64,000 nt of DNA from Escherichia coli 042. GTDB lineage: Bacteria; Pseudomonadota; Gammaproteobacteria; Enterobacterales; Enterobacteriaceae. Numbering within the stretch: position 1 is the stretch's first letter; each line of letters starts with the position of its first letter. The notes beneath the pieces were generated by a model. That model was not told the DNA's origin and did not search any database. It was given only the letters and a program-made list of their open reading frames with translations. The DNA lies in assembly GCF_000027125.1 (NCBI RefSeq), contig NC_017626.1, one strand, 5' to 3'. Positions 26,142 to 34,607 of this stretch are shown piece after piece. The position numbers and the translations under genes were made by a program.

Positions 26142-27620
26142 ATGTCGAAAAAATACATCATAGGGATTGATGGCGGAAGTCAGAGCACAAAAGTGGTGAT
26201 GTATGATCTGGAAGGTAATGTGGTTTGCGAAGGCAAAGACTTATTGCAGCCGATGCACACGCCAGATGCCGATACCGCAGAACATCCTGACGACGATTTA
26301 TGGGCATCATTATGTTTTGCCGGTCACGATTTGATGAGTCAGTTTGCCGGGAATAAAGAAGATATTGTCGGTATTGGTCTGGGCTCCATCCGTTGCTGCC
26401 GTGCGTTATTGAAAGCCGATGGCACGCCAGCTGCGCCGTTGATTAGCTGGCAGGATGCACGCGTTACACGCCCTTACGAACATACGAATCCTGACGTGGC
26501 ATATGTCACCTCTTTTTCAGGTTATCTGACGCATCGCTTAACCGGCGAGTTTAAAGACAATATCGCCAACTATTTTGGTCAGTGGCCGGTGGATTATAAG
26601 ACCTGGGCATGGAGTGAAGATGCCGCAGTCATGGAGAAGTTTAATATCCCCCGTCATATGCTGTTTGATGTGCAAATGCCTGGCACCGTCCTCGGACATA
26701 TCACACCACAAGCCGCACTGGCGACACATTTCCCGGCAGGACTGCCGGTTGTTTGTACCACCAGTGATAAACCGGTAGAAGCTCTGGGGGCCGGATTACT
26801 GGATAATGAAACTGCGGTAATTTCTCTTGGCACTTACATCGCATTGATGATGAACGGCAAAGCACTGCCGAAAGATCCGGTGGCGTACTGGCCAATTATG
26901 TCTTCTATTCCGCAAACATTGCTGTATGAAGGTTACGGTATCCGCAAAGGCATGTGGACAGTGAGCTGGCTGCGCGACATGTTAGGCGAGTCGTTAATTC
27001 AGGATGCCAAAGCACAGGATCTTTCACCGGAAGATTTACTCAACAAGAAAGCGTCTTGTGTGCCGCCTGGCTGTAATGGTCTGATGACGGTGCTGGACTG
27101 GCTGACCAATCCGTGGGAACCGTACAAACGCGGGATTATGATCGGCTTTGATTCCAGCATGGATTACGCATGGATATATCGTTCGATACTGGAAAGCGTG
27201 GCGCTGACGCTGAAGAACAATTACGACAATATGTGTAATGAAATGAATCACTTTGCAAAGCATGTGATCATTACTGGCGGTGGTTCGAACAGCGATCTGT
27301 TTATGCAGATTTTTGCCGACGTGTTCAACCTTCCGGCACGACGTAACGCCATTAATGGTTGTGCAAGTCTGGGGGCAGCGATTAATACGGCGGTAGGTCT
27401 GGGGCTATACCCGGATTACGCAACGGCTGTCGACAAAATGGTTCGCATGAAAGATATCTTTATGCCTGTTGAGAGCAACGCCAAACGCTACGACGCGATG
27501 AATAAAGGCATTTTCAAAGACCTAACCAAACACACTGATGTGATCCTGAAAAAATCGTATGAAGTGATGCATGGTGAGCTGGGGAATGAAGATTCGATCC
27601 AGAGCTGGTCGAATGCGTAA
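26142..27620 (+). CDS. ygcE: FGGY-family carbohydrate kinase
   Basis: 492 aa; N-terminal GIDGGSQSTK sugar-kinase motif and C-terminal ITGGGSNSDLFMQIFADVF. Confidence 0.88.
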   Translation: MSKKYIIGIDGGSQSTKVVMYDLEGNVVCEGKDLLQPMHTPDADTAEHPDDDLWASLCFAGHDLMSQFAGNKEDIVGIGLGSIRCCRALLKADGTPAAPLISWQDARVTRPYEHTNPDVAYVTSFSGYLTHRLTGEFKDNIANYFGQWPVDYKTWAWSEDAAVMEKFNIPRHMLFDVQMPGTVLGHITPQAALATHFPAGLPVVCTTSDKPVEALGAGLLDNETAVISLGTYIALMMNGKALPKDPVAYWPIMSSIPQTLLYEGYGIRKGMWTVSWLRDMLGESLIQDAKAQDLSPEDLLNKKASCVPPGCNGLMTVLDWLTNPWEPYKRGIMIGFDSSMDYAWIYRSILESVALTLKNNYDNMCNEMNHFAKHVIITGGGSNSDLFMQIFADVFNLPARRNAINGCASLGAAINTAVGLGLYPDYATAVDKMVRMKDIFMPVESNAKRYDAMNKGIFKDLTKHTDVILKKSYEVMHGELGNEDSIQSWSNA

Positions 27621-27667
27621 GTGAGGAAGACCGGGCGGGAAACTGCCCGGCCTGAACATACCTGAAT

Positions 27668-27804
27668 GGTTATCCCCGCTGACGCGGGGAACATAAGTTC
27701 GACAACTTAAAAAATGATAACAAGTCCGGTTTATCCCCGCTGATGCAGGGAACATAATAAAAACTTTAACTAGTTCGGTTTATCCCTGTTTTTACAAGGA
27801 ATAT
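27668..27804 (-). CRISPR. degenerate CRISPR remnant (CRISPR2.2-like): about 3 decayed repeats
   Basis: Decayed repeat copies at about 27668 (GGTTATCCCCGCTGACGCGGGGAACAT), 27727 (CGGTTTATCCCCGCTGATGCAGGGAACAT) and 27776 (CGGTTTATCCCTGTTTTTACAAGGAATAT); spacing 59 then 49 bp. Confidence 0.7.
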
Positions 27805-28257
27805 TAACTACACTCGATGTCTTTAGAATAAAAGACAATACGAATCGCACTTTATCAATTTTCACTTAAAGTATGAACTGGATATCTTTATTCATAAGAA
27901 CTATTCATCAACAGCGTATAGAGGCGATTATGTAAAATCACTCATTAGCCTCAAAACAAAGACAAATTTCCAGATTTATTACTTAATCAATGAATAATAA
28001 GCTTAAAAAATACACTGTTATTCTAAAGAAAAAATTAACAGGCATTAATTAATATTAAAAAAATAATATATTAAAATTTCTTAACGATTTAAGAATCATA
28101 CAAATAACACTTTGATTAAATTTAATTTTTTGTATCGATAATTGTGAACTTCTCTGGCATGGAGAACTATTTTGAACATGAGGTGTTACGTGGATATGTT
28201 GCTTATTACAAGTACTGCTAATATAAAAACTTGAGAAAGAGATAACGGGTTATATGG

Positions 28258-28408
28258 TGGTTTATCCCCGCTGGCGCGGGGAACTCTTGGCATAGGCGCT
28301 ATAGCGGCGCTCTGTGTCCGGTTTATCCCCGCTGACGTGGGGAACTCAAAGACAAATTTCTTTGTTCCTATGGCCAGACCGGTTTATCCCCGCTGGCGCG
28401 GGGAACTC
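28258..28408 (-). CRISPR. CRISPR array (CRISPR2.3-like): 3 repeats, 2 spacers
   Basis: Repeats at about 28258, 28319, 28380 with 61-bp period, consensus CGGTTTATCCCCGCTGGCGCGGGGAACTC; the middle repeat carries GACGTGGGG. Confidence 0.9.
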
Positions 28409-28500
28409 TCTAAACATAACCTATTATTAATTAATGATTTTTTAAGCCAGTCACAATCTACCAACTTTACAGTATCACACAAACAACACATCCATTATGT
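28409..28500 (-). promoter_or_regulatory. CRISPR leader for the 28258-28408 array
   Basis: AT-rich, abuts the terminal repeat, shares AAACATAAC and CAATCTACCAAC with the 2554-2649 leader. Confidence 0.65.
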
Positions 28501-28746
28501 TAAAGAGCATTTAATCCATTGATTAAAAAGATAAATATTTGAAATAACTCTATTCAAACTAAAATCTACCAAATTTCACCGCAATAATTTTCACTCCAAC
28601 GAAAAATTAACGCCATAAAATTTGTAGAGAATGATAATGATTAGTTCAGGATGGGCAAAATGGAGGTTTTTCAGAGGCGACAAAGAATATAAATGAGTAG
28701 AAGTCTTTACAGGTTCCACCCATTTATAACGCTTATAAATGTTTAA

Positions 28747-29418
28747 TCAGGCAATATTTAAATATTTATGCGTTTGCATCGACAAACGCCAGTTGCGCGC
28801 AATGCACGTATCGATACATAAACGAGTAGCATCATCCTTTTGGCTAATCGGCTGCAGTGCAATGACTCGCGGTTTATCATCGGTCAGTGTTGCCAGTAGT
28901 TCATCCAGTGCTTCAATATCACGTACGCGTCCCACTGGATGCTTGATTTCGTTGGCTCGCTCCAGTGCCTGTGACAACACTTCATAGCCGCCGCGCATGT
29001 TCAGCTTTGGCGATACGGTAACCCAGGTATTCGGTGTGCAGCGTACCTCATGAGTACCACTGGTTTCGATCTGGCAGCTAAAACCGTTCTTTTCGAGCAG
29101 GTCAGTCAGTGGCAGCAAATCATGAATGCAAGGCTCACCACCCGTAATCACCACATGCCGCGCGGTGTATCCCTGGCGACCAATGACAGCCAGCAAGTCT
29201 TCACTGCTCGCCGCCCCCCACTTATCACTCTCTTTGGTCTTCGCCAGAATGCTGAAAAGGGAGACTTCCCGATCCTCAAGCTTTTCCCAGGTGTGTTTGG
29301 TGTCGCACCAGGCACAGCCAACCGGGCATCCCTGTAAACGAATAAAAATGGCGGGGACGCCGGTAAAGTAACCCTCACCTTGCAGGGTCTGGAACATCTC
29401 GTTAATCGGGTACTGCAT
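28747..29418 (-). CDS. queE: 7-carboxy-7-deazaguanine synthase (radical SAM)
   Basis: 223 aa, MQYPINEMFQTLQGEGYFTGVPAIFIRLQGCPVGCAWCDTKHTWEK (radical-SAM Cys cluster). Confidence 0.93.
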   Translation of the reverse strand: MQYPINEMFQTLQGEGYFTGVPAIFIRLQGCPVGCAWCDTKHTWEKLEDREVSLFSILAKTKESDKWGAASSEDLLAVIGRQGYTARHVVITGGEPCIHDLLPLTDLLEKNGFSCQIETSGTHEVRCTPNTWVTVSPKLNMRGGYEVLSQALERANEIKHPVGRVRDIEALDELLATLTDDKPRVIALQPISQKDDATRLCIDTCIARNWRLSMQTHKYLNIA

Positions 29419-29590
29419 AGCATTCTCTGTGAAGTGGATAATTGTTAATTATTGCAGATCCTGCCACAACAATCATGTCTTATTAACATTCTGTTACAGG
29501 CAGGTTTAAGGCAAAAAGTGGATGAGATCATAAAGAATAAAATGAAGCGGCGTATTATGTTTTAAGGAATTAATTAAAAGGGACATAGAC

Positions 29591-30193
29591 ATGCTCAGGA
29601 TATTCATCGTAATTATATTTATTGCCAATTTATCAGGCTGTGGATATAACGATATTCAAACCTATGATGAGCAGGTTAACGCCTCCTGGTCTGAGGTATT
29701 GAATCAATATCAACGTCGCGCCGATCTTATTCCTAATCTTGTCGCCAGTATTAAAGGTTATTCCAGCCATGAACAAGAGGTACTGGAAGCCGTAACATTG
29801 GCACGTAGCCAGGCTAATCGCGCCAGTAGCGATCTTCAGCAAGCTCCGGGAGATGCGCAAAAATTACAAGCCTGGCAACAAGCCCAGGCGCAGGTGTCTC
29901 GCACTCTCGGTCAGTTAACGATAATTAGTGAACGTTACCCTGATTTAAAAGCTCAGGAACTCTATCAAAATTTAATGGTACAGCTCGAAGGAAGTGAAAA
30001 TAGAATTGCCGTTGCGCGAGGAAGATATATTAAAGCCATTGAACAATATAATGTCACTATCCGCAAATTCCCCGCTGTATTAACCGCAAAGGTCATGGAT
30101 TACACACCGAAGAAAAATTATTTGCCGGATGACGTCGCAGCTGTGAGTAAAGCACCAATAATAGATTTTAGCCAGAATGCTAATGCGCATTAA
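29591..30193 (+). CDS. LemA-family protein, probable lipoprotein / membrane-anchored
   Basis: 200 aa; N-terminal hydrophobic segment with lipobox-like LSGC; LemA-like core (ASWSEVLNQYQRRADLIPNLVASIKGY...ERYPDLKA...QLEGSENRIAVARGRY...YN). AAGGGA SD. Confidence 0.85.
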   Translation: MLRIFIVIIFIANLSGCGYNDIQTYDEQVNASWSEVLNQYQRRADLIPNLVASIKGYSSHEQEVLEAVTLARSQANRASSDLQQAPGDAQKLQAWQQAQAQVSRTLGQLTIISERYPDLKAQELYQNLMVQLEGSENRIAVARGRYIKAIEQYNVTIRKFPAVLTAKVMDYTPKKNYLPDDVAAVSKAPIIDFSQNANAH

Positions 30194-30206
30194 GCGGGGA
30201 AGTTAT

Positions 30207-31100
30207 ATGCGAAATTTTATCTTCCTTATGGCTTTCTTCTGTTCATCTGTGTTTGCCACACAAATTCCAGTACCTGAATCACCCAGGTATGTGAATGACT
30301 TAACCGGCACATTGACAAACAGTGAAGTAAACACCCTGACCAACCAGATTAAAGCCCTGACGCAAAAAAACAACGCACAGTTGGTCGTGTTAGTGGTTGA
30401 AACAACAGGCGATGAAACCATCGAGCAGTACGCAACGCGGGTATTCGATAGCTGGAAACCGGGTGATAAAGACCGCGATGATGGCGTTCTACTGTTAGTC
30501 GCCTGGCAGGATAATACCGTGCGTATTGAAATTGGTTACGGACTGGAAGGTATTATTACGGATGCGCAGTCCGGGAAAATTATTCGCAACAGTATTATTC
30601 CGGCATTTAAAAAAGGCGACCTGGCTGGCGGTTTACAAAAGGGGATCAGCGATATTGAAAGTCGTCTGACGGGGAATAATTTAGCAACGATAACACCGAC
30701 CGATTACCCTTTGCCCTTTAGTGGTTGGTGGGCTTTGTTAGTCTGGGCGATAGTACTGACGTTTATTTCTGCCAGAGGATATGTCAAAACACTGGGACTA
30801 ATTTGCTTCGCAGCTATTGTACTGGCCTTTGTTTTACCTATAGCAGGTTTCAGCGGAAGCTGGGGAGTGCTCGCAACATTACTCTGCTTCGCCACACCGT
30901 TCCTGGCTGTCGCCATCGCTTTTACTCCCTTCGGCAAAAAGGTTCGGGATTCGATGCGTAATACCAACCAGCCATCACGCCATACAAGAAACAATTCTTC
31001 CTCCCACTATTCGTCATCGTCATCCTCTTCATTCGACAATGACAATTTCCGCGGTGGTGGCGGTTCATCTGGTGGCGGTGGCGCTTCCGGGCGCTGGTAA
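30207..31100 (+). CDS. TPM-domain membrane protein (YgcG-like), paralog 1, Gly/Ser-rich C-terminal tail
   Basis: Track ORF 30177..31100; start placed at MRNFIFLMAFFCSSVFA (signal peptide). TPM-like domain (LVVLVVETTGDETIEQYATRVFDSWKPGD...GVLLLVAWQDNTVRIEIGYGLEG), then TM segments, tail ...FRGGGGSSGGGGASGRW. Confidence 0.85.
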   Translation: MRNFIFLMAFFCSSVFATQIPVPESPRYVNDLTGTLTNSEVNTLTNQIKALTQKNNAQLVVLVVETTGDETIEQYATRVFDSWKPGDKDRDDGVLLLVAWQDNTVRIEIGYGLEGIITDAQSGKIIRNSIIPAFKKGDLAGGLQKGISDIESRLTGNNLATITPTDYPLPFSGWWALLVWAIVLTFISARGYVKTLGLICFAAIVLAFVLPIAGFSGSWGVLATLLCFATPFLAVAIAFTPFGKKVRDSMRNTNQPSRHTRNNSSSHYSSSSSSSFDNDNFRGGGGSSGGGGASGRW

Positions 31101-31114
31101 CAAAAGGAATTGAT

Positions 31115-32263
31115 ATGCGTATTTTTCTCTTACTTCTGATGCTATGCGGTTTTCAGGTATTCGCTGAACGATTGCCTTCAGTGACTGACTTAACCGGGAC
31201 ATTAACGACAGAAGAACAAAGTGCTTTAAATCAACAATTACAGACTCTCGAGCAGCAAAACCACTTCCAGGTGGCCGTGTTGGTTACGCCGACCACAGGG
31301 GGCAAAAATATTAAACTTGCAGCCTCGCAGAGCTACGGGTTATATCACTGGAAACCCGTTGGAGAGAAGCGATATGGCGAAGGAATCTTAATTCTCGTCC
31401 TCTGGCCGGAAGGGCTGGCGTCAATGAAGATTGGACATGGACTGGAACAGATGTTGCCGCCGGAACAAGCTGCACAAATTGTTCGTTACCATATGCAGCC
31501 AGAATTCGAAAAAAACAATCTCTTTGCTGGATTAACGGGCGGAATTGAAAGCATCGCACAGTTTACCCATATCAAAGCGAACCTTAGCCCTTTGGATGCT
31601 TTAGCCAATCATCTGTTTGCTAATCCGCAACGTTCGCTGCCATGTCTTGCCTGGACACTGCTGATGATCGTTGCCATCGTTGTCCTCTGGCGATTTGCCA
31701 GCCGCCCAGGGCGTGGCATATGGATGATATCGATGATTACCCCTATGGTCTGGTTTTTCTTCTTTCAGGACGATGTCATCATTCGGCGGGTGTCGATCGT
31801 TTGTTTTAGTTTATTGTTCGCAACAACCTGCTGGCAGCGTCTCGCGGTAGTTTTTAATATGTGCCGCGCATTTCCTATGATGCTGGCCCCCAAAAATAAA
31901 AACACTAAAGTGAAAAAACAAAAGAAGACTCCGCAGGTTCGTGAATCAGGACGAAATTCATTGTTTGTCGTGATGCTGATAATTATTGTGGGATGGTGCC
32001 TGGTGTTCGCCAGTAATAAAGATATTGCATTCATCTCAACAATTATTGGGCTAATTGATCATTTTATCGGCCCAATAACCATTGCTGGCATAGTTCTGCT
32101 GATCATTGTGGCCAAATTTACTGGCAATCTTAAACTGGGGTCAGGAGAAAAAAGCAACAGGAAAACGGGGAATCGTAATGCTCATTCTCGCTCTTCGTCG
32201 AGAAATTCTTTCCGCGGTGGTGGTGGTTCTTCAGGAGGCGGCGGTTCATCCGGACGCTGGTAA
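31115..32263 (+). CDS. TPM-domain-like membrane protein, divergent paralog 2 with extended polytopic region and Lys-rich loop
   Basis: 382 aa; signal peptide, degenerate TPM-like region (VAVLVTPTTGGKNIK...ILILVLWPEGLASMKIGHGLEQ), several hydrophobic helices, loop KNKNTKVKKQKK, tail ...FRGGGGSSGGGGSSGRW. Confidence 0.8.
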   Translation: MRIFLLLLMLCGFQVFAERLPSVTDLTGTLTTEEQSALNQQLQTLEQQNHFQVAVLVTPTTGGKNIKLAASQSYGLYHWKPVGEKRYGEGILILVLWPEGLASMKIGHGLEQMLPPEQAAQIVRYHMQPEFEKNNLFAGLTGGIESIAQFTHIKANLSPLDALANHLFANPQRSLPCLAWTLLMIVAIVVLWRFASRPGRGIWMISMITPMVWFFFFQDDVIIRRVSIVCFSLLFATTCWQRLAVVFNMCRAFPMMLAPKNKNTKVKKQKKTPQVRESGRNSLFVVMLIIIVGWCLVFASNKDIAFISTIIGLIDHFIGPITIAGIVLLIIVAKFTGNLKLGSGEKSNRKTGNRNAHSRSSSRNSFRGGGGSSGGGGSSGRW

Positions 32264-32268
32264 TCATT

Positions 32269-33162
32269 ATGCGCTTAATCTTTTTTCTACTTACTTTATG
32301 GTGCCTTCCTGGGCTTGCCCAGCAAATTGCTGTGCCGGAGCTGCGCCAACAGGTGACCGATATTACTGGTACGTTAAGCACGTCTGAACAACAATCACTG
32401 ACACAACAGCTGCAGGATATCACACAAAAAACACGGGCCCAGGTCGCCGTATTAATAGTGCCATCCACCGGAGACGATACCATTGAACAATATGCAACAC
32501 GCGTTTTTGATAGCTGGAAACTGGGAGATAAGCAGCGAAACGATGGTATTTTACTGCTGGTTGCCTGGGAAGATCATGCTGTCCGTATAGAAGTGGGCTA
32601 CGGGCTGGAAGGGGTGGTTACCGATCTGCAAGCAGCGAAGATTATCCGTAATATATTAATCCCAGCCTTCAAAAGTGATGACTTGATGGGTGGGTTAACA
32701 CTGGCAAGCGAAAATATCGGAGCGCTTCTGTTGAATGGTGAATTACCGGAAGACAGGGGGGATTATTACAGTATCAATCCCCCTATTCCATTATCGCTTG
32801 CTGTAATTATATTGCTGGCGGTACTTTCATATTTTATTGTTTTTACCGATCCGTCGAATTTACCCTGGATAGCACTGACTGGCGGAATTTATGGGATGGT
32901 ATTCCTCTATGTTGCCGAGCCAGGACCATGGACGAATTTAATCGTTGCCTGCGGTATGCTCACGCCTTTTGCTATCGTACCACTGGTTATTTTTTGGCTT
33001 ATCGTTAATAAAAAGCTACGCGCCAAATACAAAAAACTCAGTAAAGAAAGAGCTTCAAGAAAAGGTTCTTCTTCATCCTCTTCCGGTGGCGGCTCAAGTG
33101 GCGGCGGATTTAGCGGCGGGGGCGGTTCTTCTGGCGGTGGCGGCGCGTCCGGTCGCTGGTAA
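32269..33162 (+). CDS. TPM-domain membrane protein (YgcG-like), paralog 3
   Basis: 297 aa; signal peptide, TPM domain close to paralog 1 (AVLIVPSTGDDTIEQYATRVFDSWKLGDKQRNDGILLLVAWEDHAVRIEVGYGLEG), TM helices, tail ...GGGSSGGGFSGGGGSSGGGGASGRW. Possibly the ygcG ortholog; not certain. Confidence 0.85.
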   Translation: MRLIFFLLTLWCLPGLAQQIAVPELRQQVTDITGTLSTSEQQSLTQQLQDITQKTRAQVAVLIVPSTGDDTIEQYATRVFDSWKLGDKQRNDGILLLVAWEDHAVRIEVGYGLEGVVTDLQAAKIIRNILIPAFKSDDLMGGLTLASENIGALLLNGELPEDRGDYYSINPPIPLSLAVIILLAVLSYFIVFTDPSNLPWIALTGGIYGMVFLYVAEPGPWTNLIVACGMLTPFAIVPLVIFWLIVNKKLRAKYKKLSKERASRKGSSSSSSGGGSSGGGFSGGGGSSGGGGASGRW

Positions 33163-33171
33163 CTCAACCAT

Positions 33172-33202
33172 AAAAAATGCCAGCCCGAAGGCTGGCATTT
33201 TT
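33172..33202. terminator. bidirectional rho-independent terminator between the LemA-TPM cluster and eno
   Basis: AAAAAA-TGCCAGCC-CGAA-GGCTGGCA-TTTTT: perfect stem flanked by A-tract and T-tract. Confidence 0.8.
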
Positions 33203-33221
33203 AAATCAGATAAAGTCAGAC

Positions 33222-34535
<1,314 letters not shown>

Positions 34536-34565
34536 TCACTAGTTAAACTGAAACTCCAGACAAAC

Positions 34566-34588
34566 AACGCGTACCCAGGGTACGCGTT
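34566..34588 (-). promoter_or_regulatory. perfect palindrome in pyrG-eno intercistronic region (probable RNA stem-loop / processing site)
   Basis: AACGCGTACCC-AGG-GTACGCGTT between the pyrG stop and the eno start. Confidence 0.5.
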
Positions 34589-34607
34589 GCCGTTCTAACT
34601 TTTTTAC

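Follow-up and report, generated by a model that had tools for sequence, protein, structure and literature searches.

The 64,000-nucleotide (nt) stretch of Escherichia coli 042 DNA analysed here (contig NC_017626.1; hereafter the window, to which all coordinates refer) carries, between queE (28747-29418, minus strand) and eno (33222-34520, minus strand), four co-directional plus-strand genes in the order lemA-TPM1-TPM2-TPM3, separated by gaps of 13, 14 and 5 nt. The last three encode YgcG-type proteins with a TPM domain, and this study concerns the middle one, TPM2 (31115-32263), a diverged protein of 382 amino acids (aa) which we characterized by Pfam searches, alignment, an AlphaFold2 (AF2) model and the ratio of nonsynonymous to synonymous substitution rates (omega). 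Its open reading frame (ORF) starts with ATG about 8 nt downstream of an AAGGA Shine-Dalgarno sequence and 14 nt past TPM1, contains no internal stops, and ends 5 nt before TPM3. TPM2 is 85 aa longer than TPM3 (297 aa, which is also the length of TPM1 when read from M11), as the first-pass annotation of this DNA had noted. RefSeq already names relatives of TPM2 'YgcG family protein' or 'TPM domain-containing protein', and annotates the same locus in other strains as a 'LemA family protein' gene followed by three 'TPM domain-containing protein' genes. The exact TPM2 sequence of the window was absent from the protein-cluster collection, and identical DNA was present in strain Ecol_316.

From its N terminus, TPM2 is predicted to consist of a signal peptide (aa 1-17, MRIFLLLLMLCGFQVFA followed by E; 31115-31165), read from hydropathy and sequence and conserved in Klebsiella orthologues that lack the TPM domain; a TPM domain (aa 18-156; 31166-31582), identified by Pfam over residues 23-149, AF2, Foldseek, a table of conserved residues and omega; three transmembrane (TM) helices, a-c (aa 171-251; 31625-31867), which are helical in AF2 and include columns invariant between Escherichia and Klebsiella; a Lys-rich loop (aa 252-278; 31868-31948); two further TM helices, d and e (aa 279-335; 31949-32119), recognized by AF2 and hydropathy; and a basic, Gly-rich tail (aa 336-382; 32120-32263 with the stop codon) ending in FRGGGGSSGGGGSSGRW. 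The signal peptide would place the TPM domain in the periplasm.

The TPM domain of TPM2 has diverged from those of its neighbours. All three proteins match Pfam TPM (PF04536) over its full length, with scores of 138.9 bits for TPM1, 133.2 bits for TPM3 and 76.5 bits for TPM2, whose match spans model positions 1-124 of 125 and compares with a gathering cutoff of 22.1 bits. We assessed residue conservation against an alignment of 88 distant YgcG-type relatives, in which 80 columns have a consensus of at least 60%. TPM1 and TPM3 each match this consensus in 57 of the 80 columns, and TPM2 in 38. At columns conserved in at least 90% of sequences TPM2 keeps T24, D25, T27, L30, L38, Q52, L56, G83, G90, G107, G109, L110, E111, P129, F131 and G139, and it retains the V-T-D-L-T-G-T-L start and the G-x-G-L-E motif. 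Five residues that are 94-99% conserved among the relatives are replaced (E to K67, R to S103, E to K105, G to Q112 and D to P116), two of them by Glu to Lys charge reversals (K67 and K105). K67 replaces the Glu of TIEQYA in helix 2, S103 and K105 replace the outer residues of R-I-E in strand 4 (RIEVG), and P116 replaces the Asp that caps helix 3; D to E99 and Y to H108 are milder changes. The G-Y-G-L-E-G loop after strand 4 reads G-H-G-L-E-Q in TPM2, with four of the six positions kept and Y to H and G to Q changed. These assignments come from ungapped local alignments anchored by identical flanking residues. The derived states K67, K105 and P116 have become fixed in both E. albertii and another Escherichia species.

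The motifs quoted for these proteins in the first-pass annotation are all present as written. Its description of a near-identical TPM core in TPM1 and TPM3 holds for a stretch of about 50 aa but not overall, where identity between the two is only 42%; TPM2 is 35-39% identical to each, and is thus the more diverged yet still recognisable, by a smaller margin than the short motifs imply. Its portrayal of the TPM2 core as degenerate and preserved in outline only was accurate insofar as the divergence is real and TPM2 does not retain all conserved TPM residues, but it went too far, in that the TPM fold is full-length and the domain is constrained.

We modelled TPM2 with AF2 on a 110-sequence alignment. 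The TPM domain was obtained with a predicted local distance difference test score (pLDDT) of 76-88 and the canonical order of strands (E) and helices (H): E23-25, H32-49, E53-58, H66-76, E91-96, E101-106, H116-132 and H136-156. In this model the domain has the TPM fold, an alpha/beta/alpha sandwich with a four-stranded sheet. Foldseek matched it to BA41 of Bizionia argentinensis (PDB 5ANP) with E=2e-8, a template modelling score of 0.83 and a root-mean-square deviation of 1.8 A. Further PDB matches were 2KW7, 7TBR, 3PVH and 4OA3, and the proteins matched include PG0361, Rhom172_1776, TLP18.3, BA42, Psb32 and a chain of the mycobacterial CIII2CIV2 supercomplex. The five replaced residues sit in the model at the start of helix 2, in strand 4, in the loop between strand 4 and helix 3, and at the helix 3 cap. 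Judging from these strand-end and helix-start positions, they would line the usual ligand face at the C-terminal edge of the sheet. A metal site has been described for CrLMTP1 and Rhom172_1776, formed by an Asp ending strand 1 and a Glu in helix 1 (bioRxiv 10.1101/2024.10.28.620569). At the sequence level TPM2 retains this putative pair as D25 and E34, spaced D...E(+9) as they are in TPM1 and TPM3.

Selection on the locus was estimated by the Nei-Gojobori method from 5-7 sequences of a locus with clear recombination mosaicism, which gave between-species omega values for TPM2 of 0.20-0.31 overall, 0.09-0.21 in the TPM domain and 0.23-0.69 in the membrane part. Since omega in the TPM domain is 0.09-0.21, the domain is being maintained in its remodelled state. 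Judged from both sequence and model, it is remodelled rather than degenerate, and a working domain in Escherichia.

The membrane part of TPM2 differs from that of its paralogs. Five TM helices are predicted from the AF2 model and hydropathy (residues 171-194, 200-216, 221-251, 279-298 and 301-335), compared with about three TM segments in each of TPM1 and TPM3 by our reading of hydropathy; the greater number of hydrophobic helices proposed earlier for this paralog is therefore borne out. So is its lysine-rich loop, with KNKNTKVKKQKKTPQ found at aa 260-274. The whole loop, aa 252-278, is disordered in the model and holds eight Lys and Arg residues against one Asp or Glu, and the tail is likewise disordered, basic and Gly-rich. 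Conserved motifs in helices a-c are LPC…TLL and (D/E)DVII(R/H). By the positive-inside rule, the charge pattern fits a five-TM topology with the N terminus outside and the C terminus inside. The short loop between helices a and b, the Lys-rich loop and the tail are predicted to be cytoplasmic, and the acidic loop between b and c (QDD) and the turn between d and e to be periplasmic. The 85 additional residues of TPM2 would thus match one basic loop plus one helical hairpin, an addition that keeps the tail cytoplasmic. Helices d and e are the extra hairpin by count only, as the TPM2 anchor is not alignable to those of TPM1 and TPM3: hhalign comparison of the TPM2 membrane module with the two anchors gave a probability below 2%, with no homology. 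A simple internal duplication of a paralog anchor as the source of the extra helices was likewise unsupported, since hhalign found no similarity.

To define the distribution of this module we used a HMMER profile that excludes the TPM domain and the tail. Among 1.84 billion representative proteins it found 11 matches, comprising two full-length clusters plus fragments, all of the TPM2 lineage. A scan of 100,044 species genomes found the module only in E. whittamii, E. albertii and K. spallanzanii. On these searches the membrane module is a lineage-specific novelty, with no detectable relatives outside Escherichia (coli, albertii and whittamii) and K. spallanzanii.

The extreme C terminus shows the opposite distribution. 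The three paralogs and nearly all of 110 aligned YgcG-type proteins end in F-[RS]-GGGGSSGGGG-[AS]-SG-[RS]-W, and residues G368-W382 of TPM2 fall in invariant or near-invariant columns of that alignment. In DNA the three tail regions of the window (31046-31100, 32209-32263 and 33108-33162) are 80-84% identical and differ for the most part at third codon positions, which led us to reject gene conversion as an explanation for the matching tails. Because the tail is conserved at the protein level among the paralogs and is near-invariant across the family, we regard it as a candidate common interaction element.

Database searches also identified TPM2-like proteins of 265-285 aa without a TPM domain in K. 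spallanzanii and related metagenome contigs. These share with TPM2 the signal peptide, the linker (ALA[DN]HL...LPC), the membrane motifs (TLL... and [DE]DVII[RH]) and the tail (...FRGGGGSSGGGGASGRW). Their loop is longer than that of TPM2, with 10-13 Lys and Arg residues, and its sequence is not conserved. The Klebsiella locus is syntenic with that of the window, with queE followed by lemA, a TPM gene (294 aa), the TPM-less gene and, further on, eno. A remnant of the beta1-alpha1 region (ISDLTSTLAAAEQ) persists in the TPM-less orthologue. One Klebsiella protein keeps ISDLTSTLAAAEQMLNHQ, colinear with VTDLTGTLTTEEQSALNQQ of TPM2, and then jumps approximately residues 44-157. This colinear retention of the first ~20 residues of the TPM domain indicates that the short form is a deletion derivative and not an unfused ancestor. 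Two Klebsiella loci differed in this gene by 69 nonsynonymous and 61 synonymous changes, and the resulting omega of 0.33 indicates that the gene is maintained. Together with the residue losses in TPM2, the Klebsiella deletion suggests that the canonical TPM pocket is not what the TPM2 lineage is kept for. In K. spallanzanii (locus L004, 5860-7200) the position held in E. coli by TPM3, immediately after the TPM-less paralog, is occupied by an array of clustered regularly interspaced short palindromic repeats (CRISPR) of type I-E-like form; on a related contig (L005) an epimerase gene takes that place.

Of the three TPM paralogs, TPM2 alone was intact throughout the loci examined. It is full-length in nine Escherichia loci (the window, two O157-type strains, an allele of 93% identity, two E. 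albertii-type loci, the E. albertii type strain, E. whittamii and a cryptic Escherichia), and is TPM-less but intact in K. spallanzanii. TPM1 carries a single in-frame stop at codon 225, which removes its last TM helix and the Gly tail, in O157:H7, in strain e1-39 and in the C2-type cassette described below (L001 2308-3215, L012 and L013); its 224-aa and 297-aa forms are both common, each being found on at least 1,000 contigs. The Klebsiella loci and one E. albertii locus (L007) lack TPM3. The suggestion that TPM2 works alongside two canonical paralogs is thus not upheld as a requirement. The gene order of the LemA-TPM operon is common to E. coli, E. albertii, E. whittamii, another Escherichia species and K. 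spallanzanii.

In a neighbour-joining tree of TPM domains, calculated without bootstrap, the TPM2 clade lies inside the enterobacterial YgcG proteins on a long stem, with root-to-tip distances of 0.70-0.75 against 0.50-0.60 for the others. Such a placement fits an old duplication among the enterobacterial YgcG proteins, presumably at this same locus, and a later acceleration. Synonymous divergence (dS) varied abruptly along the gene. Between the window and locus L006 it fell from 0.65 in the TPM domain to 0.09 in the membrane part of TPM2; between the window and L007 it was 1.59 in the TPM domain compared with 0.14 for eno; and in the Klebsiella TPM-less gene it was 0.38, compared with 0.02-0.08 for lemA, eno and queE. 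Such abrupt shifts, exceeding the values of flanking genes, indicate intragenic recombination between divergent alleles and a mosaic gene.

The first gene of the operon, lemA (29591-30193), encodes a LemA-family protein of 200 aa (Pfam PF04011, 164 bits) with an omega of 0.04-0.07. Its N-terminal signal (29591-29650) is of the lipoprotein type (…ANLSGC followed by GYND), with the lipobox (…LSGC) read from sequence, and not a plain TM anchor. The lipobox Cys is followed by Gly, so that by the usual +2 sorting rule this LemA would not stay in the inner membrane. TPM1 (30207-31100) and TPM3 (32269-33162; omega 0.09-0.15) are canonical YgcG-type TPM proteins. The mechanical ORF of TPM1 begins at its first ATG, 30177; the start at M11 (30207) is taken from RefSeq homologues and is probably the real one.

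Upstream of the operon, the queE-lemA intergenic region (29419-29590, plus strand) is the presumed promoter. In an alignment of six loci, the ~110 nt nearest queE were identical in all E. coli cassette types. In K-12, a chromatin immunoprecipitation peak for sigma-S has been found at queE/ygcG (PMC4447067), and PhoP binds upstream of queE (PMC4974570). Taking these K-12 data with the shared sequence, the operon is probably driven from the stress-responsive promoter region divergent from queE, and stress-linked expression is plausible. Promoter-like sites were rarer in the operon than in shuffled sequence, and a scan for terminators found none within it that was convincing; an internal promoter inside TPM2 was rejected, as none scored above chance. 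Rfam searches of both strands of 27000-34600 at the gathering threshold gave no match. Two short type I-E CRISPR arrays (GGTTTATCCCCGCTGGCGCGGGGAAC, 61-nt spacing) lie upstream of queE at 27667-27805 and 28259-28409; the first is degenerate, RefSeq annotates a CRISPR at the same place in other strains, and Rfam reported nothing there.

To place the operon in the E. coli population, we surveyed 5,426 complete genomes for the content of the queE-eno site (29419-33221), which is occupied by three mutually exclusive cassettes. A yqcG+ygcG cassette of the K-12 type was found in 3,924 genomes (72%), the four-gene operon of lemA and three TPM genes in about 1,101 (20%), and a C2-type cassette of lemA, a truncated TPM1 and a 120-aa ORF in 340 (6%). 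The 120-aa hypothetical protein was considered as a relative of TPM2 or TPM3 and rejected, being unrelated. K-12 YgcG is 44-48% identical to TPM1 or TPM3, and the variable part of the site starts ~60 nt upstream of the first gene. At least 80% of the TPM2 gene was present in 1,102 of the 5,426 genomes. Among 30 copies listed, the 29 full-length ones bear the annotation 'TPM domain-containing protein', and none of the copies we inspected directly is flagged as a pseudogene. IS4 insertion sequence (IS) elements lie in or beside the locus in some strains (NZ_CM166348.1; L012 4426-5747), one of which otherwise shows 100% identity to the window across the operon, and IS1 insertions occur in the K-12-type cassette.

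Literature searches on ygcG, yqcG, LemA with TPM, and the LemA family found no functional study of this operon, nor a function established for LemA-YgcG operons in Enterobacteria. We compared TPM2 with related families and systems. With the YgcG family, represented by K-12 YgcG and BA41, it shares a signal peptide, a periplasmic TPM domain of the same fold, a C-terminal membrane anchor and a Gly-rich tail ending in ...SG(R/S)W. Unlike that family, TPM2 has five near-invariant residues replaced, five TM helices against about three, an added polybasic loop, and a membrane module without detectable homology to other YgcG anchors. Psb32/TLP18.3, which are photosystem II repair or assembly factors, and a subunit of the mycobacterial CIII2CIV2 supercomplex also carry the TPM fold on the extracytoplasmic side. 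These are bound auxiliary or assembly subunits rather than clear enzymes, and they offer a functional analogy for an accessory role of TPM2. TPM2 is not itself Psb32: it scores 11.4 bits against NCBIfam NF047379 (cutoff 160), its partners and anchors differ, and its hosts are non-photosynthetic. MOLO-1 of Caenorhabditis elegans, the 'M' of TPM, combines a TPM domain with a TM anchor and is a non-enzymatic auxiliary subunit of the levamisole-sensitive acetylcholine receptor. MOLO-1 is, however, eukaryotic and single-pass, and Pfam MOLO1 gave no match to TPM2 and only weak, sub-threshold matches to TPM1 and TPM3. TPM domains have also been viewed more generally as non-enzymatic subunits or assembly factors (PMC11237479). 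LemA-like four-helix bundles, in turn, have been proposed as membrane-associated scaffolds or remodelling factors (bioRxiv 10.64898/2026.07.15.738315). TPM2 is co-operonic with a LemA-family gene, whose product scores 93.8 bits against NCBIfam MamQ and does not reach the equivalog cutoff of 250.

Our preferred reading is that TPM2 is a lineage-specific, specialised YgcG member, most likely a non-enzymatic, membrane-embedded accessory subunit of a LemA/YgcG inner-membrane envelope module. We hold this tentatively, as an account that may well be correct but that we would not yet call probable. The data establish that the fold is retained, that conserved residues are replaced, that selection is purifying, that the gene is linked within the operon and restricted to one lineage, and that a TPM-less orthologue exists; the physical association, the topology, the lipid contact and a tail-mediated assembly are proposals built on them. 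In this scheme TPM2 would have arisen within the enterobacterial YgcG group, at the locus of its paralogs, and then changed quickly. It would associate with LemA and a canonical YgcG paralog, and contribute mainly through its membrane module, basic loop and shared Gly tail. The Lys-rich loop may contact anionic lipids or anchor the topology, the remodelled, charge-inverted face of the TPM domain may be a binding surface rather than a canonical ligand pocket, and expression of the operon would come from the stress-responsive region divergent from queE.

The first-pass annotation had anticipated a non-catalytic scaffold or regulatory subunit, and this stands in part. The loss of polar residues and the maintained deletion of the TPM domain in Klebsiella speak for it; the lack of defined catalytic residues and the constraint on the TPM domain speak against it. 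The label 'non-catalytic' presumes catalytic paralogs, and our literature search found no validated catalytic residues for TPM domains, so that the label itself is unsupported. Several observations weigh against the accessory subunit we propose. Phosphatase or nucleotidase activity in vitro has been reported for TLP18.3, BA42 and BA41, and BA41 is said, by the title of a 2017 study by Cerutti and colleagues, to have ATPase/ADPase activity. At the positions of the Arg and Glu lost from TPM2, 7TBR has F-I-A-T and BA41 has A-I-N-T; on these sequences the lost residues are specific to the proteobacterial YgcG subfamily and not universal in the TPM superfamily. Since BA41, reportedly active, and 7TBR also lack them, their loss from TPM2 does not equate to a loss of activity. 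In Escherichia the TPM domain is more constrained than the membrane part, and its function may therefore be primary and not accessory, with the proviso that the omega values come from a few sequences of a mosaic locus. Finally, the membrane part of the AF2 model is of low confidence (pLDDT 39-72), and the topology is drawn from hydropathy and the positive-inside rule.

In the leading alternative account, TPM2 would be a neofunctionalised, autonomous TPM protein whose pocket, now basic instead of acidic, binds or processes another periplasmic ligand, and whose larger membrane domain transduces or transports independently of the paralogs. The low omega of the TPM domain (0.09-0.21), the fixation of K67, K105 and P116 across Escherichia, the full retention of the TPM fold and the keeping of the putative Asp25/Glu34 metal motif are in its favour. 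The Klebsiella orthologue, however, is maintained without the TPM domain, in none of the 12 loci inspected was TPM2 separated from lemA and TPM1, and YgcG-type proteins have no known ligand or activity. We consider autonomy unlikely, if still worth serious attention.

A third explanation attributes the divergence of TPM2 to diversifying or balancing selection, with TPM2, or the entire locus, being attacked by antagonists that use proteins of the inner membrane or periplasm (phage, colicins or contact-dependent toxins, for example), and not to any new biochemical role. The three exclusive cassettes at 72%, 20% and 6%, a nonsynonymous divergence (dN) in TPM2 that is the highest in the operon, dS in parts of TPM2 far exceeding that of flanking genes, and the adjacent CRISPR arrays are all compatible with this. 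Omega nevertheless stays far under 1 in all long segments, recombination with divergent alleles could by itself account for the elevated dS, and PADLOC defence models matched none of the four operon proteins. We think this explanation improbable.

To a bolder reading we would give only a slim chance. Here the working core of LemA/YgcG modules would not be the TPM 'phosphatase' domain but a hetero-oligomeric membrane assembly whose members are joined through their universally conserved cytoplasmic poly-Gly ...SGRW tails. TPM2 would add to it a five-TM, polybasic, lipid-contacting module, the K. spallanzanii form would be a natural minimal version, and the queE-eno cassettes would represent a balanced polymorphism of module compositions.

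Drift of TPM2 as a redundant duplicate towards a pseudogene is very unlikely. Among the three paralogs TPM2 does score lowest against Pfam and show the highest omega, and the whole operon is missing from ~80% of E. coli genomes. Its 382 aa are, however, intact in the window, O157:H7, the 93%-identity allele, E. albertii, E. whittamii and the cryptic Escherichia. Omega of 0.2-0.3 is clearly below 1, the 1,102 genomes with at least 80% of the gene include no flagged copy among those inspected, and the stop codons occur in TPM1, not TPM2. Least credible of all, and set aside with hardly any reservation, is a mis-called or artificially fused frame joining a TPM gene to a separate membrane-protein gene, a caveat raised with the original annotation: the two parts are indeed separable in evolution, as the Klebsiella TPM-less form demonstrates, but the frame is single, uninterrupted and of conserved length across species and 1,102 genomes, the synonymous and nonsynonymous pattern backs it throughout, and the Klebsiella protein, colinear over the first ~20 residues of the domain, is a deletion derivative.

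The novelty lies in a YgcG sub-lineage of narrow distribution that carries a new membrane module, and in its natural TPM-less derivative; a generic annotation of these proteins already existed. The impact is modest, as the lineage is very narrow and has no known phenotype. LemA and YgcG/TPM proteins are widespread in bacteria and poorly understood, and the 'phosphatase' label on the TPM domain is contested. Against this background the locus is a natural dissection, in which one paralog has rebuilt the conserved TPM face, and the copy in a sister genus has lost the domain and is still under selection. The three alternative cassettes in E. coli make isogenic comparisons straightforward, and the locus directs attention away from the TPM pocket and towards the membrane and cytoplasmic parts of these proteins and their hetero-oligomerisation.

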